64,000 nt of DNA from a virus (taxonomy: Duplodnaviria > Caudoviricetes), in the IMG/VR virus record IMGVR_UViG_3300027804_001810, positions 1-64,000 of that record; one strand, 5' to 3'. Numbering within the stretch: the first letter of the stretch is position 1; every line of letters starts with the position of its first letter. This document shows positions 371 through 24,060 of this stretch, in pieces. The translations under genes and the position numbers were made by a program. Below the pieces are notes generated by a model. That model was not told the DNA's origin and ran no database searches. It saw only the letters and a program-made list of their open reading frames with translations.

Positions 371-371
371 T

Positions 372-458
372 TCAATAAGTTTCCGCAACTTTCTCTACAG
401 CATAGCACAGGAGCACAAAAAAGGCAACTGATGTGATGGTGAAAATTGTTTCAGTCAT
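372..458 (-). CDS. Small membrane peptide, 28 aa ([28 protein letters not shown])
   Basis: Manual translation; fills the hli-petF gap and its ATG overlaps the hli stop. Confidence 0.7.
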
Positions 459-4045: not shown

Positions 4046-4971
4046 AGTTCATTTTCAGAAGCAGTATATTCCTTATCAATAAACTCCTCTGGAAGATGCC
4101 CTCTAATCCATCCGTCAGGATACAAATCTTTCAGGTCTCTATAACAATCATGTTGATCCGTAAAGAAAGGACCAAAATAAGGATGTTGATAAACGGTTGA
4201 ATACTTTTTATTTTTCTGCAACCAAGATCCCCACCAACCATAGGTACTATTTGGGAAAATAGATCCATTACACAAACTCATAAGGCACAGATCAATCCAA
4301 GGAGATAGACTATATTCCATCTTCCCTCTACCGTTCCAAACCGCTTGAGTTGAATATTCTCTCTGCTCTGATATAAAAAATCTATCTTGTTTGAATAGTT
4401 TTTGTTCCTGAACCCAGTCTAACTTATCGGTTAAAACAAGAACGGGAACATCATCCGAAAAATTTTCCTTCAACATTTTTTCATACCACTCAATTCCAGC
4501 TACAGGATATTGATGAGGTCTTCCAGTAGCGTCTGCCCTTCTTACATGTAGGAAAATAATATTATCATCGAATTGTGATATAAACTCTTTGCATGGTTCA
4601 TAGATATCATCAACGAATTCAAAGTCTTCTCGAATTTCTTTTTCAATATGTTTGAAGTACTTTTCAGATTGTCTAAATCCTTCAAGATTTATATTGTCTG
4701 GACAATTTTCAAAAAGTTCTTCATCAAAATCATGGCATGGTTCATCACGTGTTGGAAAATTTTCTGGGACAAATCCAATATTATTCTCTTTCACGTGGGG
4801 AAGTTTAAATCCATCCATTAAAATGTATTCTGCCATTTGATAGGTCTGCCTATTTCTTGGTGGAATACACCAGTCATATCCATATTTTGCTGCAATACCC
4901 CTCAATGAGGCATATTGAAACATTTGGTTTGCCAGTCTACCATTTATACCAAGTCTATTGTATCCGATCAT
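4042..4971 (-). CDS. Second GT11 fucosyltransferase-like protein
   Basis: GRLANQMFQ, LHVRRAD, NSTYGWWGSWL. Confidence 0.88.
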   Translation of the reverse strand: MIGYNRLGINGRLANQMFQYASLRGIAAKYGYDWCIPPRNRQTYQMAEYILMDGFKLPHVKENNIGFVPENFPTRDEPCHDFDEELFENCPDNINLEGFRQSEKYFKHIEKEIREDFEFVDDIYEPCKEFISQFDDNIIFLHVRRADATGRPHQYPVAGIEWYEKMLKENFSDDVPVLVLTDKLDWVQEQKLFKQDRFFISEQREYSTQAVWNGRGKMEYSLSPWIDLCLMSLCNGSIFPNSTYGWWGSWLQKNKKYSTVYQHPYFGPFFTDQHDCYRDLKDLYPDGWIRGHLPEEFIDKEYTASENEL

Positions 4972-6020
4972 TTATTCAATACATCCAAAATTTTAATAAT
5001 TTGCTTTTTAGATCCAATTGTTATTCTAACACAATTCTCTAAATTTTCAAAAGAACTCCTATCTCTAATTAATATTTTGTTCTCTTTCATTTTATTTAAC
5101 ACAGTTTTAGAATCAGGAGTTTTAACAAGAACAAAGTTAGCAGAACTATCTACTGCTTTATATTGATTAGGAAGATTATCCATAAAAAACTTTTTGGCAT
5201 CATTCATTTCGGAAATACAAAATTCCAAGTAATCTAAATCATTTAAACAAGCGACACCGCAAAGTTGTGCAAGAGCATTTACAGACTTACCGTTTCTAAA
5301 CTTTTTAAGATGTACAAGTAGATCTGGGTGAGCAATAATATATCCCAAGCGAAGAGCTGCAAGACCAAATGCTTTTGAAAAAGTTCTGGTCACAATTATA
5401 TTTTTATTTGATAGAACTAAATGACAGCAAGACTGTTTAGCAAATTCATAATAAGCTTCATCAACTACAAATAAAACATTTGGCAAACTCTTAACAAGAT
5501 TTTCAATCTCTTTAATTTCTAATAACTTTCCTGTTGGGTTATTTGGATTTACAAGATAAACAACATCAGCATACTTACAATGATCAAAATCATATCGATG
5601 TTTACCCAGAGGATCTTCAATTTGGACTCGTTCATAGTTATCAGTATTTGTAGTGATAAAAGTATCAACTTGAGTATAAGAGGGTTGATAAGATAAAACT
5701 TGCGTATCGTTATCAACAAAAACTGTAAAGATATCTCTTAAGGCATCATCTGATCCATTATAAACTTCAATAAAATCTTCAGATACAGAAGTATATCTAG
5801 AAAGATTTTCCTTTAATTTTGAAGTTGTAACATCTGGATATCTTTCATAACGATAGAATCTTTTGACAACATCAAAAACTTTATTTGATGGTGGAAACTC
5901 AGATTCATTCCAATCAAAACATTCCCACTCGGAAGAAAGATTTCTTCTTCCACCAACATTGTATTCTTCAAGTTGTTTAATAGATTCTCTAACTTTAATC
6001 ATTATGAAAGAACTCCCCAA
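4968..6020 (-). CDS. HisC/CobD-like class I/II PLP enzyme
   Basis: NPNNPTG, VDEAYYEF, RTFSKAFGLAALRLGY with the PLP lysine. Confidence 0.88.
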   Translation of the reverse strand: MGSSFIMIKVRESIKQLEEYNVGGRRNLSSEWECFDWNESEFPPSNKVFDVVKRFYRYERYPDVTTSKLKENLSRYTSVSEDFIEVYNGSDDALRDIFTVFVDNDTQVLSYQPSYTQVDTFITTNTDNYERVQIEDPLGKHRYDFDHCKYADVVYLVNPNNPTGKLLEIKEIENLVKSLPNVLFVVDEAYYEFAKQSCCHLVLSNKNIIVTRTFSKAFGLAALRLGYIIAHPDLLVHLKKFRNGKSVNALAQLCGVACLNDLDYLEFCISEMNDAKKFFMDNLPNQYKAVDSSANFVLVKTPDSKTVLNKMKENKILIRDRSSFENLENCVRITIGSKKQIIKILDVLNK

Positions 6021-7228
6021 AAATCAATGAATACTTTATTAGATGTATCAAGAGATGCAAATACCTTATTAGGATGCATAATAATAATTACGTCAGACTT
6101 ATCTACACATTGCTGTGCAGAATCACATTTAATTACAAAATCCAATAGACCATTCAAGTTATCATATGTTTGTGGAAGTTCATCATAAACAAAAACCCCA
6201 ACTCCTTTACCTGTAAGTTTTTCAATCAACTTAACTGAAGGCGATCCTATAGTAACTGGAGATGCTGGTTTAAAAGATACCCCAAGAATACCAACATTTT
6301 TGTATCCACTACATTTCCTCAACAAATCCTCATGAAGACTTTCATTTACTTCGTCAGCAAATTTCAAATGCTTTGCTTCTTTACCTCTGTTCTCTGCAAA
6401 TTTAATAAAGGCAGAAGTATCTCTTGGGAAACACGTACCACCATAAGGAGTCCCATAACCAAAGAAGTATGGTGAAATTCTTTTATCCAAACCTATAGTT
6501 TCAGTAATGTTATGGACATTTACATTGTCCATACCATCACAAAGTTGACCTAGGAAATTTGCAAATGTAATCTTATTAACAATAAATGCATTCAAAGCGA
6601 CCTTGGCAATCTCTGCCTCTTCTAATGATAGAATTTTTTTAGGTGCATTATTAGTGTGAAACTTGGACCAAATGGTTTGTGTCTGAGAAATATCCAGACT
6701 GTTGTTGGATCCAATCAAGAAAAATTCTGGATTCAAAAAGTCTTTAATGACATTACCAAGTTTTACAAAATCTGGAACATATGAAAATCCAAATCCTTGA
6801 CCATATTTTCTACCAGAAATCTTTTCCACCAAATGAATCAATTTATTAATTGTTCCAGGAAGAACCGTTGATGAAAGAACAATCAAATGATAGTCTTTTT
6901 TACTTCTTTTTAAATTAACAGATAAATCTGTAAGAGCAGACTCAACAAACTCTGCAGAGTATCCACTATCTCCAAGTTGAGTATTCACTAGAATGATTGA
7001 TGCTTCTGTTTCTTCTACAGCTCTGGCATATGAATCTGTAAATCCAATAAAGTTTTCATGAGGAAATATATCAGACAATCCTGGTTCATAAAAAGGAAGT
7101 TCTTGATTGTTTAACTTCTCAAGAATGTATTCATTTTTATCTACACCCAGGATTTTATTTCCACTCTTTGCCAAACAGCAAGCAAGAGGTAATCCTAGTT
7201 TTCCAAGTCCAATAAAACTAACATTCAT
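6002..7228 (-). CDS. UDP-glucose/GDP-mannose dehydrogenase family protein
   Basis: GLGKLG, YGGTCFPRD catalytic Cys, GVSFKP. Confidence 0.92.
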   Translation of the reverse strand: MNVSFIGLGKLGLPLACCLAKSGNKILGVDKNEYILEKLNNQELPFYEPGLSDIFPHENFIGFTDSYARAVEETEASIILVNTQLGDSGYSAEFVESALTDLSVNLKRSKKDYHLIVLSSTVLPGTINKLIHLVEKISGRKYGQGFGFSYVPDFVKLGNVIKDFLNPEFFLIGSNNSLDISQTQTIWSKFHTNNAPKKILSLEEAEIAKVALNAFIVNKITFANFLGQLCDGMDNVNVHNITETIGLDKRISPYFFGYGTPYGGTCFPRDTSAFIKFAENRGKEAKHLKFADEVNESLHEDLLRKCSGYKNVGILGVSFKPASPVTIGSPSVKLIEKLTGKGVGVFVYDELPQTYDNLNGLLDFVIKCDSAQQCVDKSDVIIIMHPNKVFASLDTSNKVFIDFWGVLS

Positions 7229-8574
7229 ACCTTAACCTCATTAATGATGCTTCTAATTTTGTTTGTTTTTAGATCTCTTTTTATTTCATCAACTTCATTG
7301 ATTGTATAATTCATTTCACCCAGGCGAGAAGATAGTCCTTTTATTATATCACTTTTTATATCATCACCGCAATCAGAATTCTGAACATAGTTAAAAACAA
7401 TATCTTTCTCGGATTTCTGAATAATCTGAAACATTTTAATCGCTGGCATTTTTTTATCAATCCAACTATAAAAATTAACACCAGGTAATCTTGACCCACT
7501 AGCAGAAACTAAAATATCACTGCTTCGTCCATTAATTTCTTTAACTACACCATTCTCTAAAATAAAAGTATCCTCTGTCTGATAACGAATGAATGGCATG
7601 TAGTAGTTTAAAAAACCAGTGGCAATCAATCCAAAAGTTCCATCTCCATTATCATAAAATTCATCCACACCATACTCATAATTTTGTTTATAATCTCTAG
7701 ATTCTTCAGTCTGATGCATGAAGGATACCTTTTCCATTTGACCATAATGACCACATGGAACAATACCCAAACTTTCAACTACTTTATCATACCATTGATT
7801 CAACATTTTTTCTGATGTCACGTGAATCTTTTTTACATTGTTTAAATGTAAATTATTTTCTTCACATAAACAGGCAAGAATGTAAGCAGACGATGGATAC
7901 GTGCATATTGTTTGGTAATTGCCAGAATTAATCTTATTAATATACAGTTTAATTGTTTGAGAATTCAAATGATAAGCAGACATGTATAAACGTTTGAGTT
8001 CATGATCGTAATACCACAGAGGTGAATCACTATCTTTTGGAACATAACGCCTCAACCAAACACTAGGAGTATCATACAATTTAGCACCTTGTTCAAGGTA
8101 TGCTCTCATGTTAAAGGCAGCCTCTTTTTTAAGGGTATCATCATCCACAAAAAATTCTAGTTTATCGCCACTAGATCCACTTGTTGTGATTGGATATGCT
8201 CGATCAAGTTTTCTATTATCAGCAATTAGACGATCACGATTTTCAATAATAATTCTTTTAGTTAAGACTGGAAAATTTTTTAAGTCTTCAACTGTTTTAA
8301 AATCTCTTGGATCCCATTTGTTTTCAATAAAAATATCCCTATAATATGGAACATTATCATAACAATATGATAACAAAGATTTTAGTTCCAACAACTGATA
8401 AGATTTTTTTTCTTCTTCATTCCATTTGGAACTATGAAGCAAAAAATCAAGTGTTTCCCTATATACTTTCCCATACCTTTTGTGAAAAGGTACAAGATTG
8501 TAATAGGACCACTTGATAAAGTTGGGTGATTTTTTGACGATCCTATTTACACTTCCCATTAAAAAAATCCTCAC
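7225..8574 (-). CDS. CapK / phenylacetate-CoA ligase-like adenylate-forming enzyme
   Basis: TTSGSSG P-loop, HYGQME, RYQTED, GRSSD. Confidence 0.85.
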   Translation of the reverse strand: MRIFLMGSVNRIVKKSPNFIKWSYYNLVPFHKRYGKVYRETLDFLLHSSKWNEEEKKSYQLLELKSLLSYCYDNVPYYRDIFIENKWDPRDFKTVEDLKNFPVLTKRIIIENRDRLIADNRKLDRAYPITTSGSSGDKLEFFVDDDTLKKEAAFNMRAYLEQGAKLYDTPSVWLRRYVPKDSDSPLWYYDHELKRLYMSAYHLNSQTIKLYINKINSGNYQTICTYPSSAYILACLCEENNLHLNNVKKIHVTSEKMLNQWYDKVVESLGIVPCGHYGQMEKVSFMHQTEESRDYKQNYEYGVDEFYDNGDGTFGLIATGFLNYYMPFIRYQTEDTFILENGVVKEINGRSSDILVSASGSRLPGVNFYSWIDKKMPAIKMFQIIQKSEKDIVFNYVQNSDCGDDIKSDIIKGLSSRLGEMNYTINEVDEIKRDLKTNKIRSIINEVKV

Positions 8575-8866
8575 TATTTACTGCTTTGTCATCAATATAA
8601 TAATCTGCCGCATATTTTACACCAGTTCTTAATGTATTGAACTTAAGTCCCCAAGAACGAAGTTGATCAAAAGTTTTTTCATAGTGATTAATTTTTGAAC
8701 TACAACCTCTGGCAGTTTCAATAATAATTGTATGACCTTCTTCCCAAAGTTGATTTACTTTTTCAATCCTATCATGGTAAGGAGTAGCTTCAAAATATTT
8801 CCAGTTTCCATTATCATCCTTTTTTACATCACAAAGAGTATGATCTAGATCAAAAACATAAATCAT
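8543..8866 (-). CDS. Small HAD-family phosphatase (capsule-biosynthesis type)
   Basis: FDLDHTL, TARG, YIDDKA. Confidence 0.85.
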   Translation of the reverse strand: MIYVFDLDHTLCDVKKDDNGNWKYFEATPYHDRIEKVNQLWEEGHTIIIETARGCSSKINHYEKTFDQLRSWGLKFNTLRTGVKYAADYYIDDKAVNSEDFFNGKCK

Positions 8867-9702
8867 TTGCCAAACTTTTCCTTCAAATAATTTTCCCAGA
8901 TATAATCTTCAAGAACTTCCATTTTTTTAGCTCTCTCCAGATTATCTTTAATTGCGTCCATTTTGCTATAATATAACTCATCAGAAATATAAAATTCATC
9001 GGAGATCGTTATAATCCCATCCATATTAAAGTGCTCACCAATAGTGGGATCGCCCAAGTAAATAGGAATCGTTCCTGTAGCAAAACAATCAAGAATCTTC
9101 TCTGTAAAGTATCCTGGAACTTCGCAGTTCTCCATTGCAATTGAGAACATATAATCACAAAGTCCTTCTTCTTTCCAATCAATCCATTTAAAACCATTTC
9201 CAAAATGATCTACTTGATCTCTGAACTTCTCAACATATTCCAATCTTTTCTTATGACCCTCACACATTACTTTGTTTGAAGTAATCATAGAAATCATTTT
9301 AGACTTCTCATAAATTTTTGGTTCACGAATCCAAAATCCTTGGGCAGGAACCCACTTAAACTGAGGGCTCAACTTTAGTAGTTCTTTTTCAAAGACAAAA
9401 ATATATTCAAACTTTTCCAGGAATGCATCCAAGTTATCTCTCAAGAATTGAAACAGATCTGGAACAATAGGTTTCGATTCCAAAAACCAAGCATATTTGA
9501 TTTCATCGGAATCATCATTAAATGCTTCTGGAATTCTACGGTCTGTATAAAACTTCGCTACACCACTACCATCAGTAACCCACTCAAGGTATTTCGATTC
9601 TTTTGCATGGACAGAATATCCTTTGTTTGGAATCGGCAGTCTACCTCCATCCAAATGCGAAAAGGTACTGTCCACTAAGTTAAACTTTACTCTTTCAGTC
9701 AC
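8863..9702 (-). CDS. GT10 fucosyltransferase-like protein
   Basis: YMFSIAMEN...GYFTEKILDCFATGTIPIYLG. Confidence 0.8.
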   Translation of the reverse strand: MTERVKFNLVDSTFSHLDGGRLPIPNKGYSVHAKESKYLEWVTDGSGVAKFYTDRRIPEAFNDDSDEIKYAWFLESKPIVPDLFQFLRDNLDAFLEKFEYIFVFEKELLKLSPQFKWVPAQGFWIREPKIYEKSKMISMITSNKVMCEGHKKRLEYVEKFRDQVDHFGNGFKWIDWKEEGLCDYMFSIAMENCEVPGYFTEKILDCFATGTIPIYLGDPTIGEHFNMDGIITISDEFYISDELYYSKMDAIKDNLERAKKMEVLEDYIWENYLKEKFGK

Positions 9703-9704
9703 GA

Positions 9705-10061
9705 TTAATCTCCTGGAATAATTCTAATACTATCTTCATCAAAATGTTGGGTTGAAAATTCAAATAACTCCGTATCTTCCAAAGCATACATTTGATGTCT
9801 TAAACCTCTGTAAATATGGAAGCGATCTCCTTTTCTCAATATTTTCTTATTAGCAGCATCTAAATCATCTTCATCACTATATCTAAGTATAAGTTTCCCA
9901 GATTGAATATAAAATGTTTCATCTTTAAGCACATGATAGTGCCAAGAACATTTTTTCCCCTTTACAATATAAAGAAGTTTGCCACAATATTCTTTACTGT
10001 TAACTATCCATTTTTCAAATCCCCATCCTTTGGGAACAAATTTAATCGGAGAAGAACTCAT
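9705..10061 (-). CDS. Cupin (sugar-phosphate isomerase-like)
   Basis: PKGWGFE, SWHYHVLKDETFY, RHQMY; likely start MSSSPIK at 10061. Confidence 0.82.
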   Translation of the reverse strand: MSSSPIKFVPKGWGFEKWIVNSKEYCGKLLYIVKGKKCSWHYHVLKDETFYIQSGKLILRYSDEDDLDAANKKILRKGDRFHIYRGLRHQMYALEDTELFEFSTQHFDEDSIRIIPGD

Positions 10062-10380
10062 TGGCGTTAATTCCTTTGTCGTCGATATAATAATCGCCAG
10101 ATGGTTTGCCAAGAATTAATTTATGATACTTACATCCCCATTCATTTAATTGGTTAACAGTAAGTTCATAGAATGTTCTTTTTGCCAGGTCAGCACGATC
10201 GCCATACCTACCCATACCTCTAGCGGTAAGATAAATGATTTGGTGTCCTTCATCATACAATTTATTTATTTTGTTAATTCGATCTGGTTTTGGAATACTT
10301 GTATGGTAATCACAGTCTTCCCTACACTCTGGTTTATCACAGATCGTTCCATCAATATCAATTACATATTTCATAAACAT
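10042..10380 (-). CDS. Small HAD-family phosphatase, paralog of 8543-8866
   Basis: IDIDGTI, TARG, GKP, YIDDKG. Confidence 0.87.
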   Translation of the reverse strand: MFMKYVIDIDGTICDKPECREDCDYHTSIPKPDRINKINKLYDEGHQIIYLTARGMGRYGDRADLAKRTFYELTVNQLNEWGCKYHKLILGKPSGDYYIDDKGINANEFFSD

Positions 10381-11107
10381 CTTGTTCAGTTAATACATAA
10401 GTCCCAAAATTTTGAACAGCAATTGATGCTGCTTTATTAGCATAAGGTATTGCTTCCTCTATTCTACCATACTTAAGATAAAAGTAAACCAAAGCAGAAA
10501 GAAATGTATCTCCTGCTCCAACCACATCAAATACATTTACCCTACTACCTGGATAATGAACACCATCAAATTCTGCACCATTTGATCCTTTGGTGATAAT
10601 TAAATTATCGTTTTTACTTTTAAGGCGTTTAGATTCATCCTCATTAATTTTTATATAACAATTTGATTCTGGCAGATCTGTTTTTTTACTATCTACAAAT
10701 ACTGGGCAGCGGGATGTAAAAACAATTTGAAATAACCTTTCTTTTGTAATAAATCCTTTGTCATAATCGGAAATTACAATCGCATCAAAATCTTCTTTTG
10801 GAAGATCATAACTCATCGGTTTTACTAAATTTTCAGTATCAACTCTTAAGATTTGATGGTTATACTTTTCATCAATATATCTGGTCTTAATAATTTTTTC
10901 ATCATTTGTAAGAATGTAAACTTCCATACCGAAAGATTTAAGATTTTCTCTTACATTCCAAGCCATTCCATGTCGCACTTCTTTCCTCTGATATTTGAGA
11001 ATGGGGACAGGTGCTTCTGGATTTAACCTTTCACAAATTCCATAGACATACTCGTCTATGCAACTATCTCCGATCAATAATACTTTGTATTGTTTTTGTT
11101 GTTGCAT
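10358..11107 (-). CDS. HldE/RfaE kinase domain (PfkB family, heptose-7-phosphate kinase-like)
   Basis: IGDSCIDEY, PEAPVP, DVVGAGDTF. Confidence 0.9.
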   Translation of the reverse strand: MQQQKQYKVLLIGDSCIDEYVYGICERLNPEAPVPILKYQRKEVRHGMAWNVRENLKSFGMEVYILTNDEKIIKTRYIDEKYNHQILRVDTENLVKPMSYDLPKEDFDAIVISDYDKGFITKERLFQIVFTSRCPVFVDSKKTDLPESNCYIKINEDESKRLKSKNDNLIITKGSNGAEFDGVHYPGSRVNVFDVVGAGDTFLSALVYFYLKYGRIEEAIPYANKAASIAVQNFGTYVLTEQDVYEICN

Positions 11108-11462
11108 AATCGCCTATTCGATCAAAGAATATAAGTTTTGATGCATAGTAAGATCCTATTACAGATTTATCTTTCCAATCAGATCCTACAACCATTATAT
11201 CAGGTTTGAATGATTTTATCATCTGCTCCAGTTCATAATCACTTGAAAAAATATCCACAGTATTAACTGCCTTTAAATTTTCTAGAAAAAATTTTCTTTC
11301 TTCTTGATTATGTATTGGTCTTGTGGGACCTTTCTTTTCTCTAACTCTATCATCACTATCAATCCCAACCAACAAAAAGTCTCCTAAACTTTTTGCGTAG
11401 TTTAGGAGTTCTAAATGACCTCGGTGAAGAATATCAAATGTTCCGTTTACAAAAATATTCAT
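11064..11462 (-). CDS. HldE/RfaE domain II nucleotidyltransferase
   Basis: NGTFDILHRGH (HxGH), KGPTRPI, GSDW. Confidence 0.9.
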   Translation of the reverse strand: MNIFVNGTFDILHRGHLELLNYAKSLGDFLLVGIDSDDRVREKKGPTRPIHNQEERKFFLENLKAVNTVDIFSSDYELEQMIKSFKPDIMVVGSDWKDKSVIGSYYASKLIFFDRIGDYATTKTIQSIIDRR

Positions 11463-12279
11463 AACAATCCTTAATTCCCTTTTCTATACCTTCATACTTT
11501 ATTGGTAGATTATTTGGAGCACCACAATAAGAAAACTCATTATAAGTTCCATGTTTAGAAATAACAACTTTATGATCACTTACATTATTAATCATATCAG
11601 CAATTTCACTTAAATAATATTTTTTATCATAAACACAGTTTATATCTCGACAATCAAACTCTTCAACTAAATTTAAAAAATGACTGATAATCTTGTAAAG
11701 ATCGTTGGCATAGATAAAATCTATCTTTCTATCTTTTGTTATCTCTATAGATTTTTTATTAATGTAGTTATTGATATTGGTATTGAAGAATCTTGTTGGT
11801 TCTTCATATGGACCAAAGCATCCAAAAATGCGAAGATTGATAGCATACGGATGTTGCAAAACTCTTTTTGCAATACAGTATTTTGAAAACCCATATGGAT
11901 CTACAGGAATAATTTGACCAAAATGTTTTGGCGATGGTTCTTCTACAGGTGCTGGACGACCATATGAAGCGCCACTGTCTAAATTAATAAACATATTAGA
12001 TTTACTAATATGTTTAAAAATATTTTCAAAAATTTGCATGTTGGTATAGAAAACTTCTGGTCCGTCTTCTATATCCCTACGACCCCCTTTAATTGCCCCA
12101 TGAATAATAGCGTGATATGTCTGACCTTCAAATAAAGAATCAACTTCACTTTGAACATCCAATCTAACTTCTCTTGAAGATGGTTTAACAACTTCCCATC
12201 CTTCCGATTCTAAAAGAGGGATAATTTGCTTACCAAGAAATCCATTGGCACCTGTAAAAAGAATTTTATTCTTTGTCAT
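11434..12279 (-). CDS. NAD(P)-dependent NDP-sugar reductase/epimerase (Fcl-like SDR)
   Basis: TGANGFLG, YGFSK; has DSGASY where Fcl has SSCIY (no epimerase Cys). Confidence 0.85.
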   Translation of the reverse strand: MTKNKILFTGANGFLGKQIIPLLESEGWEVVKPSSREVRLDVQSEVDSLFEGQTYHAIIHGAIKGGRRDIEDGPEVFYTNMQIFENIFKHISKSNMFINLDSGASYGRPAPVEEPSPKHFGQIIPVDPYGFSKYCIAKRVLQHPYAINLRIFGCFGPYEEPTRFFNTNINNYINKKSIEITKDRKIDFIYANDLYKIISHFLNLVEEFDCRDINCVYDKKYYLSEIADMINNVSDHKVVISKHGTYNEFSYCGAPNNLPIKYEGIEKGIKDCYEYFCKRNI

Positions 12280-13132
12280 ACTTCCAACTAGAATCACTCA
12301 GTAGTTTTTCAAGCTCATCATCTTTAATTTCGTAAAAGTTTTCAGAAGAGGGGAATTGAAGTTCACGAACTTCATTCACATAGTCCGTAAGGGCAGATTG
12401 AATAAGTTGCCCTGCTTCACAATAACGCTTTACAAATTTAGATTTAAATTCCCAGAACAATCCAATCAAGTCGTGCATAATTACAAGTTGTCCATCAACC
12501 TTATCGCCAGCACCAATTCCATAAACAGGAATCTCCAAAGACTCTGCAATCATTGCAGCAGACTCCCTAGGCATTGCTTCAAGTAAAAGGAAAGAGCATC
12601 CAGCGTCTTGAAGACGAAGTGCCTGGTCAAGAATCACTTTTGCCTGATCTGCAGTTTTTCCTTGAACCCTATACCCTCCCAATTTAGCACGAGTATGTGG
12701 TGTTAATCCAAGATGACTCATGACCATGATTCCAGCATCGCAGATTGCTTTAATACGTTCAACCATGCACCCTTCAACCTTTACAGCATCCATTCCTGCC
12801 TGAATAAATGCCCCAGCATTTGTCACCGCATCTTCATTAGAAATTTGATATGACATATATGGCAAATCCCCCACAGTAAATGCGCGATTTACTCCACGAG
12901 ATACTGCTCTAGCAGAACGAAGCATATCATCCATGGTCACTGGAATGGTTGTCTTGTATCCCAAGGTAGTCATACCAAGAGAATCTCCAACCAAAACCCA
13001 ATCAACTCCAGCATTATCTGCCATAAGAGCTTGAGGATAATCGTAAGCAGTGACTCCAACGGTCTTTATTTTATTTTGTTTTTGTTTCTGCAACTTTAAA
13101 ATAGTTACTTTATCTTTATTATCTGCAGGCAT
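12266..13132 (-). CDS. panB: Ketopantoate hydroxymethyltransferase (PanB) homolog
   Basis: TAYDY, VGDSLGM, GDLPYMSY, VKVEG, HLGLTP, LLLEA, GIGAG, DGQ. Confidence 0.95.
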   Translation of the reverse strand: MPADNKDKVTILKLQKQKQNKIKTVGVTAYDYPQALMADNAGVDWVLVGDSLGMTTLGYKTTIPVTMDDMLRSARAVSRGVNRAFTVGDLPYMSYQISNEDAVTNAGAFIQAGMDAVKVEGCMVERIKAICDAGIMVMSHLGLTPHTRAKLGGYRVQGKTADQAKVILDQALRLQDAGCSFLLLEAMPRESAAMIAESLEIPVYGIGAGDKVDGQLVIMHDLIGLFWEFKSKFVKRYCEAGQLIQSALTDYVNEVRELQFPSSENFYEIKDDELEKLLSDSSWKYDKE

Positions 13133-13133
13133 A

Positions 13134-14819
13134 TCAGTCTAGGGGGTTAACTATCATATTACCATAGAATTCGTCTCTAGGCAAGAATGGGTACATATCT
13201 TCAAGTGGTTTTGCTGTTATTGATCCATCATCGTTTTTCTTACCCATCAAAGTAGGAATAACTTCTTGCCATTTTTCACACATAACTTCACATATCACAG
13301 GACCATTATAATTCAACGTGTATGTAATTGCGTCTTCCAAATTATTAGAATCTGCATAAACATATTCAATGCCAAAACTTTCTACTACCTTACAAATATT
13401 TGGGATGGAAACTCCACTTTCGGCATCGGTTCCTATTTCTCTACCTTCAAAAAACTTTTTCTGCGTTGTTCGGATTGAAAGATATCCTTCATTATTCCAA
13501 ACAAATAGTTTAACTGGTAGATTATAATGAACTATAGTTTGAAGTTCTTGCAAATTCATCATGAAAGAACCATCACCAGTCACACCAATTACATCACTCT
13601 TTTTAGCAAAAGCAGCGCCAATGCAAGCAGGAATAGTAAATCCCATTTCAGCTTGAGCACTGGAAGTAATATATCTTTGATTGTCTACAATATCTGTAGC
13701 TTGTGAGCAAACATAATATGCAGATCCAGCGTCGGAAATAACAACATCATCAAATCTCTTTAACTTATTAAGTACATGAGTGAAGTAATAAAGATCTACT
13801 TTTTCTGATGGATTTTCAGTTGGACAAATAGGCCACTTTCCTCTCCAACGTAAACAGGTTTCATTCCATTTAGTTCTCTGTCTAGAAAAAATGTTTTTCT
13901 GCAAAAAGTCTTTTGCATCAGAATGAATAAATCTATCAATTTTAACAGTATCTTTTGAATGTTCATCCTTATCAACATCCACCACTATTACTTTTGCTTC
14001 TCTAGCAAAAGTGGAATAATCATATCCAGTAACTGGCACAGGTAATCTACAACCAATTACAAGAAGAAGATCACAGTTTTGCATGGCAAAATTGCCAGCA
14101 CGAGTTCCTTTAATTCCAACTCTACCTACAAAATTTGAATCATTAGAATGAATTAAATCCACACCATTATAAGATGTCACAACTGGAATATTTGTTTTAC
14201 TTATGAATGCTCTAAATGCATTTTTAGCATTAGAACAGTTAATACCATTTCCAGCTAAAATTAATGGTCTTTCTGAATTTTCAATTTCATGTTCCAAATC
14301 AAAACAAGATGCCCCTTGGACATCCATGGGAACATCAATCCACACTGGACCAGGACGACAAGTTGTGGCATGATAAATTGCCTCCCTCATAATATCACCA
14401 ATGTCTTCTGGATCGTGAACAACTGCAGAATACTTAGTAATTGGTTTCACAATGTCAATAATATTAGCTTCCTGAACACCAAGATTTCTAACTCCAGCAG
14501 GAGCCATATGAGAACGATTTACATTACCAGAAACAAATATTACTGGAACACTATCTTGCCAAGCATCAAGAAGACCTGTAATTGCATTTGTTCCACCACA
14601 ACCTGTTGTTAAGCAAACAGCACTTATACTATTTGTATACTTTGAATACGCAACCGCACCCATTGCACAAGACTGCTCATGATGATTGCATATTGGTTTA
14701 ATTTTTCCGTGAGCAGCAATAGCATCATTAAGATACATTGCCCCACCGCCAGTCACAAGAAAAATGTGTTCACATCCTTCTTTATAAATCTGATCGATAA
14801 TATAATCTGCTACTCTCAT
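13134..14819 (-). CDS. ThDP-dependent enzyme of the acetolactate synthase family, probably YerE-like
   Basis: HHEQ, TTGCGGTNAITG, GDGSFMMNLQEL...NNEGY; no AHAS regulatory subunit nearby; sugar-cluster context. Confidence 0.9.
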   Translation of the reverse strand: MRVADYIIDQIYKEGCEHIFLVTGGGAMYLNDAIAAHGKIKPICNHHEQSCAMGAVAYSKYTNSISAVCLTTGCGGTNAITGLLDAWQDSVPVIFVSGNVNRSHMAPAGVRNLGVQEANIIDIVKPITKYSAVVHDPEDIGDIMREAIYHATTCRPGPVWIDVPMDVQGASCFDLEHEIENSERPLILAGNGINCSNAKNAFRAFISKTNIPVVTSYNGVDLIHSNDSNFVGRVGIKGTRAGNFAMQNCDLLLVIGCRLPVPVTGYDYSTFAREAKVIVVDVDKDEHSKDTVKIDRFIHSDAKDFLQKNIFSRQRTKWNETCLRWRGKWPICPTENPSEKVDLYYFTHVLNKLKRFDDVVISDAGSAYYVCSQATDIVDNQRYITSSAQAEMGFTIPACIGAAFAKKSDVIGVTGDGSFMMNLQELQTIVHYNLPVKLFVWNNEGYLSIRTTQKKFFEGREIGTDAESGVSIPNICKVVESFGIEYVYADSNNLEDAITYTLNYNGPVICEVMCEKWQEVIPTLMGKKNDDGSITAKPLEDMYPFLPRDEFYGNMIVNPLD

Positions 14820-16096
14820 TTTTCAAAAGTAGAAGTAATTTTCCCAATGTAATCAATCATTTCTTCAGTGATAGTAGGAGAACAACCAACAAAGAATACA
14901 AGATCAAGAACCTTACATGCATTAGGATAGTTCTTATAATAATCTAAATGGCTATATCCAGGGTGCATTAAAATATTTCCAGCAAAATAATTTCTTGTTT
15001 GAATTTTATTTGATTCCAAATGATGAGTAAGTTTATTTTTTGTTTGCTTACTATCGCAAATAATGGGAACTCCAAACCAACTCGTCTCCGCTTTAGGCAG
15101 TTCGTTAACACTCCTAACTCCAGGAATCTTTTCAAAATGTTCTTGGATAAGAACTTTATTCTTTCTACGCAATTGATGAATTTCATCCTGCTTATCAAGT
15201 TGAACAGATCCTATCGCTCCCTGAAAATCCATGGGCTTAAGATTATAACCCATTTGCGTGTAGACATACTTATGATCGATAATGCCATCATAACGATCAA
15301 TCCAGTTATCAAATCTTTTACCACAAACTCCGCAAGAAAGGAGGTTCTGAGACCCTACACAATAACAGTCTCTACCCCACCAAGCAAGACTACGGGCAAT
15401 ATTAATCAACTCACAGTCATCAGTAGAAATCATTCCACCTTCTCCAGTACAAATATGATGTGCTGGATAGAATGAACATGATGCTGCAATCGCATGATCA
15501 GTCAGATACTTACCATCCCACTTACTGCCAAGACTATCACAGTTATCAGCAATTAAATGGATCTTATAACGATCGCAAATATCAAGAATAATATCAATGT
15601 CATAAGGATTTCCCAGAACTGGTGAAGAAAATATTCCTCTGGTTTTAGTAGAGATCTTATCTTCAATCTCACTAATGTCCCAATTCAAATCTGTAAAATC
15701 AATATCAACAAAAACTGGTTTCAATCCATTTTGAACAATGGGAGCAATAGTAGTTGGAAATCCCACACAAGATACAATAATTTCATCACCATCTTCCCAC
15801 CCAAATCTTTTTTTAAGGGCAGCAATCATGACAAGATTGGCAGAACTACCAGAGTTCACCATTAAAGAATTTTGCTTATTAAATCGTTTGGAGAATTTTT
15901 TCTCAAACTTACTAACTTCCTCACCAGAAGCTAACCATTTCCCCTGAAGAAAGGATTTAAAAATAGATTCCAGTTCCCTATTATCCCAATAAGGTCCCGA
16001 ATAATAAACTGAAGACTCTCCAGGAATAAATTTACCACTATTAGCAAGATATGGAGGAGATACATCTTGTAAAAGTTTTTCAATTACACTATCCAT
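14816..16096 (-). CDS. rfbH: RfbH/DdhC (E1) NDP-4-keto-6-deoxyglucose 3-dehydratase
   Basis: SFYPAHH (His in place of the PLP Lys), WGRDCYC...CGKRF...DHKY Fe-S signature, GYNLK. Confidence 0.92.
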   Translation of the reverse strand: MDSVIEKLLQDVSPPYLANSGKFIPGESSVYYSGPYWDNRELESIFKSFLQGKWLASGEEVSKFEKKFSKRFNKQNSLMVNSGSSANLVMIAALKKRFGWEDGDEIIVSCVGFPTTIAPIVQNGLKPVFVDIDFTDLNWDISEIEDKISTKTRGIFSSPVLGNPYDIDIILDICDRYKIHLIADNCDSLGSKWDGKYLTDHAIAASCSFYPAHHICTGEGGMISTDDCELINIARSLAWWGRDCYCVGSQNLLSCGVCGKRFDNWIDRYDGIIDHKYVYTQMGYNLKPMDFQGAIGSVQLDKQDEIHQLRRKNKVLIQEHFEKIPGVRSVNELPKAETSWFGVPIICDSKQTKNKLTHHLESNKIQTRNYFAGNILMHPGYSHLDYYKNYPNACKVLDLVFFVGCSPTITEEMIDYIGKITSTFEK

Positions 16097-16949
16097 TAGT
16101 AACCTCATTCAGATAATCATTAACTTCAGTTGATACGACAGTTGACAACCAATTTCTAAACCCACCACAACGTTTGTTTATTTCTGCTGCCAGTCCTCCA
16201 CCAGCTTGGTGTAATACTTTTAGGCACATAGGTTCGCCATTAACTGGATCATCAAGGTACAGTCTACCATCTTTTAAGTAAATTTGCGACCAACTTTCCC
16301 AATGATTATTGGGATCATTGCCCCAACAGCTGGAAAGACCATATGAAACTCCAGATCCCATACAATCTATAACTTTAGAATTATATTTTTTCCAGTGAAA
16401 TAATTGATTTAGAGTATCATTTTCATCACCAACACCATAAGCAGAAGGATCAACCTCTGCTCTAATACGAATTGCTTCTTGATTTAGATTGTGCCAATCA
16501 TACCAAAATTCCTTTCGATTAACTCCAACGAGACCAGCATTAATAAACTTTTGTACTGGTATTGGATTACCATTTCCAAAAGGTTCCAAGTGGGGAATAG
16601 TAATTCCATTATGAGATCCTGCTTTATTAAAGCTGTTATTATTTCTTACACCTAGAACATCTGCTTCACTATTAAAAAGTTCATCCATTGGACCAACTAC
16701 AACAGCATCGGCGTCCAAATGAATTACCATGTCATAATCTTCAACAAAAGGAAGACAAGTTGGAGCCATCATCCAAATAGGTTTCATCCATGGATATTGA
16801 GCATAAACCTCATTAGTCATTTTAGTATCAAAAATGACATGCTCAACATCTGGATGAAAATATTTTATAGAATTTGTTAATTTCTCTACGCCAAGAATCT
16901 CAGCATAATCATCAGTACACCAAGTAGAGATAAGAATTTTCTTAGACAT
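16089..16949 (-). CDS. Putative GT-A glycosyltransferase (GT8-like)
   Basis: IHLDADAVVVG, FINAGLV, DENDTLN. Confidence 0.7.
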   Translation of the reverse strand: MSKKILISTWCTDDYAEILGVEKLTNSIKYFHPDVEHVIFDTKMTNEVYAQYPWMKPIWMMAPTCLPFVEDYDMVIHLDADAVVVGPMDELFNSEADVLGVRNNNSFNKAGSHNGITIPHLEPFGNGNPIPVQKFINAGLVGVNRKEFWYDWHNLNQEAIRIRAEVDPSAYGVGDENDTLNQLFHWKKYNSKVIDCMGSGVSYGLSSCWGNDPNNHWESWSQIYLKDGRLYLDDPVNGEPMCLKVLHQAGGGLAAEINKRCGGFRNWLSTVVSTEVNDYLNEVTNG

Positions 16950-17587
16950 TATTCAACAATTCCAACAAGAAGTTTTTCTGCCTCGTCTGAGATATCTTTA
17001 TTAACTGGGAAAAGGATAATAAATCCCTGCTTATTATATGATTTAATCACATAATGTGTTTCTTCAAATAGTTCATCAATGAACTCAATCCCATCAGCAC
17101 CATATTTTAATCTGTCTCTCCAATTGCCATCTTCAAAAGGACCGTCTTCATAAATTCTGAGATCGTCAATAACAAAAACATCATTAGAAACATCTCTGCT
17201 ATTTACAATGATTTCCAATTCACTCTGCAATGGAAGCCTCTTGCTCAGATCAGGTTCATCACCATAAGATGCCATTCCAAAATCTGCACCAGGAAAATGA
17301 GCATCCATCCAAAACAAAGTATTTCCAGATAATTCTGGAAGAATTTGTGGGAGAACATCAGAAGACTGCCCCAAATGCCAATTCACACCTTTCAGATAAG
17401 AAAGAGAAACTTTATTTTTCTTATAAATTTCTTCGATAATTTCGATCGTATGAATATTTACTTCAGAATTAATTCCATAAACAGACCTAACGACCTCTGC
17501 TGCGCCAGTGCCAGTCTCAACAAAATTTTCAATGTTATAAAACTCTAGCAAATTCTTAACATGAACTGCTTCATTTAATTGACCCAT
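16949..17587 (-). CDS. Class I SAM methyltransferase-like protein
   Basis: FVETGTG, FWMDAH, VIDDLR. Confidence 0.55.
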   Translation of the reverse strand: MGQLNEAVHVKNLLEFYNIENFVETGTGAAEVVRSVYGINSEVNIHTIEIIEEIYKKNKVSLSYLKGVNWHLGQSSDVLPQILPELSGNTLFWMDAHFPGADFGMASYGDEPDLSKRLPLQSELEIIVNSRDVSNDVFVIDDLRIYEDGPFEDGNWRDRLKYGADGIEFIDELFEETHYVIKSYNKQGFIILFPVNKDISDEAEKLLVGIVE

Positions 17588-18078
17588 TAGATTTTTTCTC
17601 CAACTACAATAAAGGAATGATTTAAATCTCTTTGACTACTAAAGATATTAGTATACCCGTTTTCTTTCATAAAATCAACTACCATTTCAGGTAAGAACGC
17701 ATGTAAGTGTTTTCTGTTATTCCAAGGTCTCCAATATTTTTGATCATAATGTGGTAGGTATAAAAACAAGGTGCCACCACTACGAATTTTTTCAGTCCAA
17801 TACAAAAGAGTTCCAGCCCAATCAGGAACATGCTCTAAACAATGACTGGAAAAAATATAGTCAACTTGATTATCAGGAAGATTATTAGCATCCCAAGGAT
17901 CATCAAAATCAAGATCTATAGGGATTGAACCTGGATAAGACCAATCAACTTTCATACACCCAATATCATATCCCTTACCCATACAAAAGTATTGTGCAAA
18001 TGGAATTGCAAACTGGGATGCATTGCCTATGGTTTGAAAGTGAGGATATTTTTCACCTCTATATTCTACTACTTGCAT
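17587..18078 (-). CDS. Class I SAM-dependent methyltransferase
   Basis: YDIGC, DYIFSSHCLEHV, GGTLFLYLP. Confidence 0.85.
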   Translation of the reverse strand: MQVVEYRGEKYPHFQTIGNASQFAIPFAQYFCMGKGYDIGCMKVDWSYPGSIPIDLDFDDPWDANNLPDNQVDYIFSSHCLEHVPDWAGTLLYWTEKIRSGGTLFLYLPHYDQKYWRPWNNRKHLHAFLPEMVVDFMKENGYTNIFSSQRDLNHSFIVVGEKI

Positions 18079-18776
18079 AACATTACGTGAGGTTTATTAA
18101 ACAGATAATCAATTTGTTCTTTATTTTTTTCATCATGAGCATAAATGACATACTCATCATAAGAAGTATCAATAACTTCAATAATATAATTAATAGATGT
18201 ATTGATTGTATGAATTTTTTTTGCCTTTTCTAGAACTTTAATCCAATCGAACAATGTAAATCCATCGATAATTTTCAATTCAACTACAGGAAGATCAAAC
18301 TGTTCTGGACTAAACAATTTACTATCACGGATATCAGTATTATAAAGATTGTTTATGAAAACGAATTCAGAGTCATCCTTTAGATTAAGTACATTATAGT
18401 ACAAATCATTTTCTTTATCAAGGTCTCGTTCAAATTTAAAATACTCACGCCAATCTTCATATTCCATATCGAGCATAGAATATTTGGATCTCATAGTTTT
18501 ACCATCATTATGAGTTAGATCAGCAGTCGCAATACTAATGAACGCTACATTTTCTTCAATAACATATCCACCAAATTGATCGTAGACATCTTTACCAAGA
18601 AAATCATCATCTAAACTAGGAAAGTCAATATCTTTAATGTAATTACCAATCCAAGTAATGTCTGGTCTGAGTGGCCAAATAACTTGATATCCTTTAGATA
18701 GCATTACTCTGGCAATTTTCTGACAAAAAAATACATCGCCAATACCAGCGGGTTGTTTAATTATACAAGGTTTCAT
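18069..18776 (-). CDS. Hypothetical glycan-related protein (GT9-like N-terminus)
   Basis: QPAGIGDVFF resembles the GT9 N-terminal motif; context. Confidence 0.5.
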   Translation of the reverse strand: MKPCIIKQPAGIGDVFFCQKIARVMLSKGYQVIWPLRPDITWIGNYIKDIDFPSLDDDFLGKDVYDQFGGYVIEENVAFISIATADLTHNDGKTMRSKYSMLDMEYEDWREYFKFERDLDKENDLYYNVLNLKDDSEFVFINNLYNTDIRDSKLFSPEQFDLPVVELKIIDGFTLFDWIKVLEKAKKIHTINTSINYIIEVIDTSYDEYVIYAHDEKNKEQIDYLFNKPHVMLCK

Positions 18777-21781: not shown

Positions 21782-22870
21782 TCAAACAGGATGATACATT
21801 ACAGTATCCTTATAGACTTGAGCGTTAATCCACTCATATGTTTTACGAATTCCTTCTTCAAGAGTTTGAGAATAATCCCAACCTAGTTTCTCACGAATAA
21901 GATCGTTGTTTGAATTACGACCACGAACTCCAAGAGGACCATTAATGTGCTTCTTAGTGATTTCTTTTCCTGCAACTTTAGCAGCAGTATCTGCAAGAGT
22001 ATTAATCGTAACCATTTCTTCAGATCCAATATTAACAGGACCGATAAACTCAGATTCCATTAAACGTCGAGTCGCTTCAATACATTCATCAATGTAAAGG
22101 AATGAACGTGTTTGCTCACCATCACCCCAGATTTCAACTTCACCACCACCAGGAGGAAGTTCAGCAACCTTACGACACATAGCAGCAGGAGACTTTTCTC
22201 TGCCGCCAGTCCAAGTGCCTTCTGGACCAAAAATATTGTGGTAGCGAGCAATTCTTACAGGAATTTTGTGATTTCGGTTGTAAGCGAGGAACATACGCTC
22301 AGAGAACAACTTCTCCCAACCATATTCAGAATCAGGTCCAGCAGGATAAGCATCGCTCTCTTTTAGTCCTGGATTGTTTACATCCATCTGTGCATACTCT
22401 GGATACATGCAAGCAGAAGAAGAATAGAAGATTTGAGTTTTATTTTGATCTTTAAGTTGATTCAGTTCTTTTTGACATTCAAGAACATTCAGATTAATTT
22501 GAATAGAATTGTGCATAATTTCTGCATCATTCTCACCACTGAAAACAAATCCAGCACCACCCATATCAGCAGCGAACTGATAAATCTCATCAAAAGGTTC
22601 TACAAATTTATCAATAACTGAATGATAATAATTTCCCTGATATCCAGCAAAACGAACACAGCGTTTAACAGTATCAAGATCTCTCAAATCACCTTGAATG
22701 AATTCATCTGCTGCCGTTTCAGAATATTCGGGGCGTTTAAGATCTACACCACGCACCCAATATCCTTCGCTTTTAAGTCTACGCACCATATGACTTCCGA
22801 TAAAGCCACCAGCGCCACACACAAGAGCAGTTTTTTGTCTTGTTGTCATATTAGTTAACCTCTGTTGCAA
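21782..22870 (-). CDS. GDP-mannose 3,5-epimerase (GME)-like protein
   Basis: GAGGFIG, AADMGG, SSACMYP, YGWEK, REKSPAAMCRK. Confidence 0.88.
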   Translation of the reverse strand: MQQRLTNMTTRQKTALVCGAGGFIGSHMVRRLKSEGYWVRGVDLKRPEYSETAADEFIQGDLRDLDTVKRCVRFAGYQGNYYHSVIDKFVEPFDEIYQFAADMGGAGFVFSGENDAEIMHNSIQINLNVLECQKELNQLKDQNKTQIFYSSSACMYPEYAQMDVNNPGLKESDAYPAGPDSEYGWEKLFSERMFLAYNRNHKIPVRIARYHNIFGPEGTWTGGREKSPAAMCRKVAELPPGGGEVEIWGDGEQTRSFLYIDECIEATRRLMESEFIGPVNIGSEEMVTINTLADTAAKVAGKEITKKHINGPLGVRGRNSNNDLIREKLGWDYSQTLEEGIRKTYEWINAQVYKDTVMYHPV

Positions 22871-22885
22871 ATTAATCTATGTATA

Positions 22886-24043
22886 TTATACACCCATAAG
22901 GGTAATAAGTCTATTGATCTGGCGCTTCGTCACAAACTGACTGTTGCCAACATATAGTCCATTGTTATGAAGAATAGAAACATTTGAAACTTCTTTATTA
23001 GTGCAAAGTTTATACTTCTTAAACGCAGGATGTAAAAGTAGATTCCCACTAATAATAGGACGATACTCGATGCCATTCGACTTTAATTTTTCTTTAAGTT
23101 CTGCACATGCAGATTGACTTTTAGAAATAATTGGGAAAGAAAAGCTACTATTACCTTTTTGATATTCAGGAATCAAATAGTCTTCGGATTTATAAATTTC
23201 ATCCCACCAGTATTTAAAGTTTTCTCTACGAATACTAATATTTTTATCTAACTTTTTGATTTGAGATAATCCAAGGACAGCGCAGACTTCATGATTCCTA
23301 AAATTATACCCATCCGTCATAAACAAAAATGCAGGATCAATATTAGGATTTTGTTTTCTGTAAACTTCAAAAACTTCTTTAGATGCTTCACGCGCCATAC
23401 CATGACTACGCTTCATACGCATTAGTTCATAAAGTTCAGTATTGTTTGTGCAAACAACACCACCTTCAATCGTTGTAATATGATGCCCAAAATAAAAGCT
23501 AAAGGTAGATCCAATAGAATCAACTCCACGCTTTTTCCCATTACGATCTTCAACTCCATGAGATTCGCAAACATCTTCTAGGATAAGAGCATTTGGAAAA
23601 ATCTCACGAACTTTTTCTACATTTGAAGAAAGACCAATCAAATGAGTGATAAAAACTGCCTTAATATCTGGATGTTGAGTTGCAATATATTTTAACTCAT
23701 CAATATCAAAAGAAAAATTCTTTAAGTTAATATCACAAAAAATTGGTTTCAATCCAGCCTGAATGATAGGGGCAACATTAGTCATCCAAGTAGTGGCAGG
23801 AACTAATACCTTATCATTGTTCTTCAACTTATAAAGTTCCTTTACTGCAGAAACTAAAAGTGAATTTGCAGTAGATCCACTAGAAACGTAGAGAGAGTGT
23901 TTAACACCTAACCACTCCGACCATTCCTTCTCAAATTGACGAACCTTTGGTCCGTTAGTTAACCTGCTACTTGTCAAAATAAAAGCAGCCATTTTAATAC
24001 GATCACTTAAGGTAATCGTATCTTTCATTAAAGGCCAATACAT
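22886..24043 (-). CDS. colD: ColD-like GDP-4-keto-6-deoxymannose 3-dehydratase (DegT family, His-type)
   Basis: FSFYFGHHITTIEGG with His at the PLP-Lys position; no Fe-S Cys cluster; next to gmd. Confidence 0.75.
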   Translation of the reverse strand: MYWPLMKDTITLSDRIKMAAFILTSSRLTNGPKVRQFEKEWSEWLGVKHSLYVSSGSTANSLLVSAVKELYKLKNNDKVLVPATTWMTNVAPIIQAGLKPIFCDINLKNFSFDIDELKYIATQHPDIKAVFITHLIGLSSNVEKVREIFPNALILEDVCESHGVEDRNGKKRGVDSIGSTFSFYFGHHITTIEGGVVCTNNTELYELMRMKRSHGMAREASKEVFEVYRKQNPNIDPAFLFMTDGYNFRNHEVCAVLGLSQIKKLDKNISIRRENFKYWWDEIYKSEDYLIPEYQKGNSSFSFPIISKSQSACAELKEKLKSNGIEYRPIISGNLLLHPAFKKYKLCTNKEVSNVSILHNNGLYVGNSQFVTKRQINRLITLMGV

Positions 24044-24060
24044 TTAAGTTCCTCCAAACA

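Follow-up and report, generated by a model that had tools for sequence, protein, structure and literature searches.

The described systems closest to the locus treated here, a predicted sugar-branching cassette in a 64,000-nucleotide stretch of viral DNA (the window; positions 1 to 64,000 of IMG/VR record IMGVR_UViG_3300027804_001810), are bacterial clusters encoding YerE-like thiamine diphosphate (ThDP)-dependent enzymes. Yersiniose A synthesis in Yersinia pseudotuberculosis (E1/E3, YerE, YerF) proceeds via E1, an Fe-S enzyme with His in place of the Lys that binds pyridoxal phosphate (PLP), followed by ThDP-dependent branching at C4 and ketoreduction. These features are shared by the viral cassette, but YerE uses pyruvate as donor and needs no donor-forming enzyme, and no E3 was found in the viral contig.

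The clusters for erwiniose, caryophyllose, and gastriose (ErwI/ErwJ-ErwE-ErwF, MMAR_2331/2332, and MygI/MyGE/MygF, respectively; PMC9306805) have in common with the viral cassette an E1-type route to a 3,6-dideoxy-4-keto sugar, YerE-like branching, an NAD(P)H-dependent reductase, and the presence within the cluster of an Mg-dependent enzyme for making the branch donor. ErwE rejects pyruvate and uses 4-hydroxy-2-oxo acids, for which the authors propose the cluster aldolase ErwI as supplier, and the reaction is followed by an NAD(P)H reductase (Steitz 2022, PMC9306805). MMAR_2332 and MyGE were tested with similar donors and placed in the same 'unifying scheme' (PMC9306805). The features of this scheme, a deoxy-keto-sugar gene, a YerE-like enzyme, a reductase, and a glycosyltransferase, are all present in the viral cassette, which matches the erwiniose/caryophyllose kind in three of its four components. 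The exception is the aldolase: no pyruvate aldolase of the HpcH/HpaI or BphI type is found in the cassette, and its place is taken by PanB (PF02548), an enzyme of C1 transfer from methylene-tetrahydrofolate (methylene-THF). Further differences from these clusters are that the cassette belongs to a virus and not to a bacterium, that genes for cytidine diphosphate (CDP)-glucose are missing from its contig, and that the sugar is predicted from the genes. The original prediction for this DNA knew of no described example of such a pathway; aldolase-made 4-hydroxy-2-oxo-acid donors for YerE-like enzymes are a precedent (Steitz 2022, PMC9306805).

The window lies within an IMG/VR virus contig of 74.8 kb, which is 36% complete. 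The DNA of this contig matches Synechococcus T4-like phages (Kyanoviridae), and the source virus is, judged by these matches, an uncultured marine T4-like cyanophage. The cassette consists of the following genes:

11434-12297, minus strand: extended short-chain dehydrogenase/reductase (SDR), similar to YerF/ErwF and a candidate for reducing the branch carbonyl (Pfam Epimerase, 3.6e-25)
12266-13132, minus strand: PanB of the viral clade, from the ketopantoate hydroxymethyltransferase family; it would form the 4-hydroxy-2-oxo acid used as branch donor (PF02548, TIGR00222)
13134-14819, minus strand: YerE-like ThDP-dependent carboligase, a predicted sugar C-branching enzyme (TPP_enzyme N, M, and C domains)
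14816-16108, minus strand: E1/RfbH-type pyridoxamine phosphate- and [2Fe-2S]-dependent 3-dehydratase of nucleoside diphosphate (NDP)-4-keto-6-deoxy sugars (NF011936, alignment to 3bcx)
16089-16949, minus strand: GT8-like glycosyltransferase that may transfer the branched sugar (Pfam GT8, weakly matched at 0.0034)

This set of genes is proposed, with a probability of about 0.6, to make and install an acyl-branched deoxy sugar by the logic of erwiniose and caryophyllose. All substrates and products of the route are deduced from the gene identities, catalytic motifs, conservation, and exclusive linkage of PanB to YerE-like enzymes that are described below. E1, together with a ferredoxin-type electron source, would convert an NDP-4-keto-6-deoxy sugar into an NDP-3,6-dideoxy-4-keto sugar. 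PanB would enolize a free 2-oxo acid of the host on Mg2+ and add a C1 unit from 5,10-methylene-THF, resulting in a 4-hydroxy-2-oxo acid; by default, 2-oxoisovalerate would be converted into ketopantoate, with 4-hydroxy-2-oxobutanoate or its 3-methyl form as alternatives. The YerE-like enzyme would then decarboxylate this donor on ThDP and attach the resulting acyl anion at C4 of this keto sugar, leading to a tertiary alcohol with a 3-hydroxyacyl branch. Subsequently, the SDR would reduce the branch carbonyl, and the GT8-like enzyme would transfer the sugar to a surface glycan of the host or to the virion. Ketopantoate is 4-hydroxy-3,3-dimethyl-2-oxobutanoate, a 4-hydroxy-2-oxo acid. Since it belongs to the same chemical class as the donors of the bacterial systems, and since PanB of Escherichia coli can be used as an aldolase, replacement of the donor-forming enzyme by PanB is the most economical reading. 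The central idea of the original prediction, in which a PanB product serves a YerE-like enzyme as donor for a 3,6-dideoxy-4-keto sugar that is then reduced, is supported by every comparative test run, as far as such comparisons reach. The route would represent a PanB-for-aldolase variant of the Steitz 2022 scheme that is widespread in marine viral contigs.

The YerE-like enzyme and its neighbours in the cassette

Although pipelines annotate the ThDP enzyme as acetolactate synthase, it scores below every equivalog cutoff for acetohydroxyacid synthase (AHAS). Against PDB sequences, it reaches 362 bits with JanthE (8rph, the entry cited by the JanthE engineering paper), 224 bits with PpYerE (5ahk), and 217 bits with a plant AHAS, and is thus closer to JanthE than to the yersiniose-type enzyme. 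With three AHAS sequences as root, a tree places it within the YerE-like ingroup, which is split from AHAS at 100% support. Both TGDGSF...WNNEGY (the GDG-X(24-27)-NN motif) and HHEQ with the catalytic Glu are present, and this residue (E48) is invariant in 30 relatives. By all criteria of sequence and context, it is a YerE-like enzyme of predicted sugar-branching function, in agreement with the assignment made beforehand.

With JanthE, a promiscuous YerE-like carboligase, the phage enzyme shares the three-domain ThDP fold and the ketone-accepting subclass. For JanthE, the motif is CDG and no physiological sugar has been assigned (PMC12247030), whereas the phage enzyme has the canonical GDG and a linker after the first domain that is ~40 residues shorter. 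Compared with other YerE-like proteins (~600 amino acids), ~30-40 residues are missing from this linker in the window enzyme and its close relatives (561-568 amino acids). A total of 150 relatives scoring at least 362 bits were found among 1.84 billion protein representatives. Fusions of ThDP enzymes with PanB were absent among long protein representatives, in which only fusions with cupin, HAD, and methyltransferase domains occurred. In these YerE-like fusion proteins (P0143, P0158, P0170, P0238, P0161, P0221), a cupin-containing segment extends the N-terminus, or a HAD hydrolase or methyltransferase is attached at the C-terminus.

The four genes from the SDR to E1 lie on the same strand and overlap or are 1 nt apart, which bears out the tight packing described before. 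The E1-like protein, RfbH, has Yersinia E1 (3bcx) as its best PDB match with 255 bits and scores 379 bits against NF011936, just under the equivalog cutoff of 423. In the alignment to 3bcx, His220 (AHH) occupies the site of the PLP-binding Lys, and Cys residues are found at E1 positions 193, 251, 253, and 261, which are presumably the ligands of the [2Fe-2S] cluster. Both the exchange of Lys for His and the Fe-S motif had been claimed from the sequence and are matched here. The SDR has intact TGANGFLG (TGxxGxxG) and PYGFSK (YxxxK) motifs and did not yield any match among PDB sequences. In 30 of the 31 close IMG/VR loci, RfbH is immediately preceded by a homologue of the GT8-like protein, which is a candidate transferase of the branched sugar. 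A further group of genes adjoins the cassette:

9705-11462, minus strand: cupin, HAD phosphatase, HldE-I-like kinase, and HldE-II-like nucleotidyltransferase (cupin and HAD matches; TIGR02198 and TIGR02199 below cutoff)

This block is found next to the cassette in 19-21 of the 31 close loci and would be a possible supply of an NDP-(heptose) acceptor for the branched sugar.

The viral PanB lineage and its partners

PanB of the window matches PF02548 (6e-97, 324 bits) and exceeds the TIGR00222 cutoff of 207.6 with 282 bits. Its alignment to E. coli PanB (1m3u) spans the whole protein and shows GDSLGM, GDLP, VKVEG, HLGLTP, LLLEA, and GIGAG to be retained, confirming the intact Mg-binding and catalytic motifs that had been reported for it. 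The catalytic residues Asp45, Asp84, Lys112, Glu114, and Glu181 are invariant across viral and cellular PanBs. Accordingly, full-length alignment, Mg ligands, and the catalytic Lys and Glu are shared with the housekeeping enzymes of E. coli (1m3u) and Mycobacterium tuberculosis (1oy0), from which the viral PanB differs by its separate clade, by five clade replacements, and by the lack of a panC/panD/panE context.

In a tree of 42 non-redundant viral and 30 cellular PanBs, the viral proteins form one clade (SH-aLRT 91) apart from the cellular ones, to which they are 38-48% identical. In 151 cyanobacterial genomes, only ordinary PanBs are encoded, the best match having 246 bits and at most 48% identity. 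None of 401 Pseudomonadota genomes encodes a viral-type PanB at E<=1e-75. In an archaeal phylum of small genomes, PanB was found in 12 of 301 genomes, none of which has a ThDP gene within 1.5 kb of it. A database of isolate phages yielded neither a viral-type PanB nor a YerE-like gene in cyanophages. Sugar enzymes are the neighbours of the viral PanB in the 49 viral loci analysed, in contrast to panB of Salmonella, which is located beside panC. The panB gene of 'Microcystis phage MaAM05' (MW495066.1) was set aside as a comparison, being one gene from panC and near suf genes. In that entry, panB lies close to panC and a full suf operon at 8896-18729, and the region resembles either cellular DNA or a gene acquisition of quite another kind.

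Two of the gene products could also be regarded as auxiliary metabolic enzymes that boost pantothenate/coenzyme A and branched-chain amino acid synthesis of the host, with an accidental location among glycan genes. PanB passes the curated PanB thresholds, and the ThDP enzyme is called acetolactate synthase by pipelines. However, the latter is below all AHAS cutoffs and nearest to JanthE and YerE. The AHAS small subunit (IlvN; ALS_ss_C domain) as well as PanC and PanE were not found in the 74.8 kb contig, so that their absence, which had been claimed for the window in the case of panC and panE, extends to the wider contig; since the contig is only 36% complete, missing partner genes are weak evidence of absence. 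In addition, PanB is always syntenic with YerE-like genes inside sugar clusters, and its identity of at most 48% to cyanobacterial PanB is unlike that of host-derived auxiliary genes. A role in host vitamin and amino acid supply is therefore very improbable.

The linkage of PanB to YerE-like enzymes was followed across viral contigs. With the ThDP protein as query, 45 IMG/VR loci were found, and about 31 close loci share the GT8-like/E1/ThDP/PanB/SDR gene set with 66-86% identity of the ThDP enzyme and 88-98% identity of PanB. More distant loci retain ThDP-PanB-SDR (ThDP 45-50%, PanB 45-74% identical). With PanB as query, 80 distinct IMG/VR contigs with a viral PanB were obtained, and an adjacent ThDP gene is present in 79; the remaining contig is truncated, so that the neighbour is outside the sequence. 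The gap between the two genes has a median of 5 bp and a maximum of 311 bp, and they are on opposite strands in one locus. The order is ThDP-PanB in most loci and PanB-ThDP in 18. This association is not due to chance, and the rfbH-ThDP-panB triad, for which conservation had been in question, is conserved in the close loci.

The partner ThDP enzymes belong to three deep clades, which are 30-56% identical to the window enzyme and all nearest to JanthE and PpYerE. Across the pairing loci, PanB is 72-98% identical, compared with 30-95% for the ThDP enzyme. The PanB tree does not sort by ThDP partner: PanBs from clade I, II, and III pairs are interspersed, with at least 10 label changes, and the tree is incongruent with the ThDP tree. 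This can be read as one viral PanB lineage that may have recombined with different branching enzymes and sugar-tailoring sets. A PanB that remains constant while the ThDP clades vary, with incongruent trees, is more in keeping with an unchanging small molecule of host metabolism as substrate than with one bound to a sugar.

In locus types A to C, the pair is accompanied by E1 and a YerF-like SDR, the latter following PanB. The gene order is reversed in a third type of PanB-ThDP locus (L151, L153, L172, and L198 of IMG/VR, around 6400-13400), which is flanked by genes for a B12-binding radical S-adenosylmethionine (SAM) enzyme, an RmlC-like 3,5-epimerase, a GT47-like protein, and a radical-SAM/SPASM enzyme, which suggests a differently tailored branched sugar. 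Instead of forming a C-C branch, the ThDP enzyme could merely decarboxylate what PanB makes, and the resulting hydroxy-aldehyde or acid would decorate the sugar via an O- or N-linkage. This would fit the clade III loci, which have no clear E1, and the CapK/PaaK-like adenylate-forming enzyme and aminotransferases of the glycan island around the cassette. It is nevertheless improbable, as all three PanB-linked ThDP clades are nearest to the ketone-accepting YerE/JanthE enzymes, the adenylating enzyme is outside the conserved cassette, and the pair occurs together with E1 and the YerF-like SDR in types A to C.

Compared with cellular PanBs, the viral clade has the replacements F87Y, Q142H, V179L, I200Y, and V214I as well as a Pro to Ser exchange near position 227 (E. 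coli numbering), all at sites with little or no variation among the 30 cellular sequences. The substrate-pocket residues F87, Q142, I200, and V214 are kept in 29-30 of 30 cellular PanBs and changed to Y, H, Y, and I, respectively, in 38-42 of 42 viral ones. Most replacements introduce larger or more polar side chains. In E. coli ketopantoate hydroxymethyltransferase (KPHMT), V214 is one of the residues, besides I202 and I212, that were mutated to enlarge the substrate pocket (PMC7610986). The replacements may indicate a smaller 2-oxo acid, such as pyruvate or 2-oxobutanoate, or a changed site for the electrophile.

These changes bear on two further explanations. In the first, a yersiniose-like route, the YerE-like enzyme adds an acetyl or other simple acyl group from pyruvate, and PanB subsequently hydroxymethylates the sugar-bound branch or the keto sugar. 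YpYerE indeed prefers pyruvate (PMC12247030), and clade-specific replacements that include pocket residues are compatible with a new and bulkier substrate (PMC7610986). However, the complete set of PanB residues for binding Mg2+, the 2-oxo group, and the carboxylate is retained, while the α-hydroxy ketone of the branch has no carboxylate. Moreover, PanB is nearly constant, its tree is independent of ThDP clades and sugar-tailoring genes, and most of its replacements are to larger and not to smaller side chains, so that late hydroxymethylation appears unlikely, albeit the foremost of the alternatives to donor formation by C1 transfer.

In the second, PanB acts as a THF-independent class II aldolase that joins a 2-oxo acid to an aldehyde other than the C1 unit, forming a longer hydroxylated donor for the YerE-like enzyme. 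The E. coli enzyme accepts many 2-oxo acids and works as a class II aldolase, in vitro also with acetaldehyde, lactaldehyde, and aldoses (PMC7610986). In bacterial clusters, true aldolases fill the slot of PanB, and the fixation of Q142H, F87Y, and I200Y in the viral clade could reflect an altered electrophile site. On the other hand, an aldehyde-forming, ErwJ-like gene is not conserved beside the PanB-ThDP pair, and PanB of the window exceeds its equivalog cutoff. This second explanation is rated slightly below the first and likewise considered unlikely.

Donor, acceptor, and consequences of the proposed route

Several points weigh against the route from an E1 product and a PanB-made donor to an acyl-branched deoxy sugar. 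The contig, whose completeness of 36% is itself to be counted here, contains no NAD_binding_1 domain that would indicate an E3 reductase, and RfbF and RfbG were not detected with matches above cutoff to TIGR02622 or TIGR02623. Viral PanBs are altered at sites that are invariant in cellular enzymes, including V214 of the pocket, and may have a substrate other than 2-oxoisovalerate. Ketopantoate, with a quaternary carbon next to the carbonyl, would be a demanding donor for a ThDP enzyme. Finally, the clade III loci have no clear E1 and carry RmlC-like and radical-SAM genes, so the acceptor differs there and C-branching is only assumed for them.

For the E1 step, the identity of the enzyme stood as originally predicted, whereas the canonical CDP-glucose route to its substrate is not encoded in the contig. 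Candidates for the acceptor nucleotide sugar are guanosine diphosphate (GDP)-4-keto-6-deoxymannose from Gmd, a thymidine diphosphate (dTDP) sugar (RmlA is present without RmlB), and an NDP-heptose from the cupin/HAD/HldE block. It may be speculated that the ferredoxin encoded at the end of the glycan island replaces E3 as electron donor of the E1-like enzyme.

Given the replacements at sites invariant in cellular PanBs, the donor may be ketopantoate or a smaller 4-hydroxy-2-oxo acid, and the chance of ketopantoate is put somewhat below even. A more far-reaching version of the route is tentative and held with slightly less confidence still: ocean viruses might have a dedicated route to a deoxy sugar with a ketopantoate-derived branch at C4, 4-C-(1,3-dihydroxy-2,2-dimethylpropyl), a C5 unit of the neopentyl type; a single virus-specific PanB lineage might serve as a portable donor module that was repeatedly combined with different YerE-like enzymes; and most 'panB' and 'ilvB' auxiliary metabolic genes in marine viromes might be glycan genes. 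Considered separately, it is probable that the genes listed as 'panB' and 'acetolactate synthase' in ocean viruses belong to glycan synthesis.

If the route is correct, a folate-dependent C1-transfer enzyme of vitamin B5 synthesis joins the suppliers of branched-sugar side chains, a sugar without described counterpart is predicted, and the 'pantothenate' and 'acetolactate synthase' labels of viral metagenomes turn out to be systematic errors in need of correction, the ThDP family alone accounting for hundreds of clusters in marine data. Marine viruses including phages would assemble complex glycan pathways from exchangeable two-gene modules, which bears on changes of the host surface or decoration of the virion. 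Viral PanBs and YerE-like enzymes would also be candidate biocatalysts for quaternary and tertiary carbon centres. An in-silico survey by Krug et al. 2024 is said to comprise >200 YerE-like clusters; it lay outside the scope of the full-text literature search conducted here, in which no paper was found that links YerE-like enzymes with PanB in one pathway.

Prokaryotic YerE-like loci and other glycan genes of the contig

The prokaryotic set consisted of the 80 closest loci in GTDB species genomes from many phyla, with 36-50% identity. PanB is not encoded within 10 kb of the YerE-like gene in any of them, and in five of these genomes an ordinary panB is located elsewhere. An E1 homologue is found within 10 kb in 47 loci and a homologue of the window SDR in 15, where it flanks the ThDP gene. 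Genes within 6 kb of the ThDP gene were clustered and representatives of the resulting families scanned. NeuB-type synthases were found in 20 loci, HAD phosphatases in 16, HpcH/HpaI aldolases in 14, and HMGL-type (BphI/DmpG-like) aldolases in 10. The NeuB, HpcH/HpaI, and HMGL-type families form 3-deoxy- or 4-hydroxy-2-oxo acids, in agreement with the donors established for ErwE (Steitz 2022, PMC9306805). The NeuB-family synthases (e.g. L048 11852-12931; loci L046-L125) are often accompanied by HAD phosphatases, which suggests 3-deoxy-2-ulosonic acids derived from phosphoenolpyruvate as branch donors, beyond the published aldolases.

Nearly all genes of the viral contig are on the minus strand, and nine tRNA genes are scattered over it. 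The cassette genes are part of a glycan island of ~25 kb (750-25981), which also encodes glycosyltransferases of the GT25, GT11 (two copies), GT2, and GT10 families besides the GT8-like protein. Further sugar genes of the island encode a split HldE, methyltransferases, a GME/Fcl-like SDR, a ColD-like DegT enzyme, Gmd, and RmlA. Individual groups of its genes and the adjacent auxiliary genes are as follows:

80-388, minus strand: plant-type [2Fe-2S] ferredoxin, directly after the island (PF00111, 82 bits at 122-343)
4968-8574, minus strand: class I/II aminotransferase, UDP-sugar 6-dehydrogenase, and CapK/PaaK-like adenylate-forming enzyme, in a row
21782-25068, minus strand: second C3-deoxygenation set of Gmd (TIGR01472, 524 bits), ColD-like DegT enzyme, and GME/Fcl-like SDR
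25115-25981: RmlA
27799-28299, minus strand: homologue of the plastid terminal oxidase (PTOX)/alternative oxidase, beyond the island

The set at 4968-8574 may be a module for an amidated or acylated uronic acid. The ferredoxin and the PTOX homologue are typical auxiliary genes of cyanophages.

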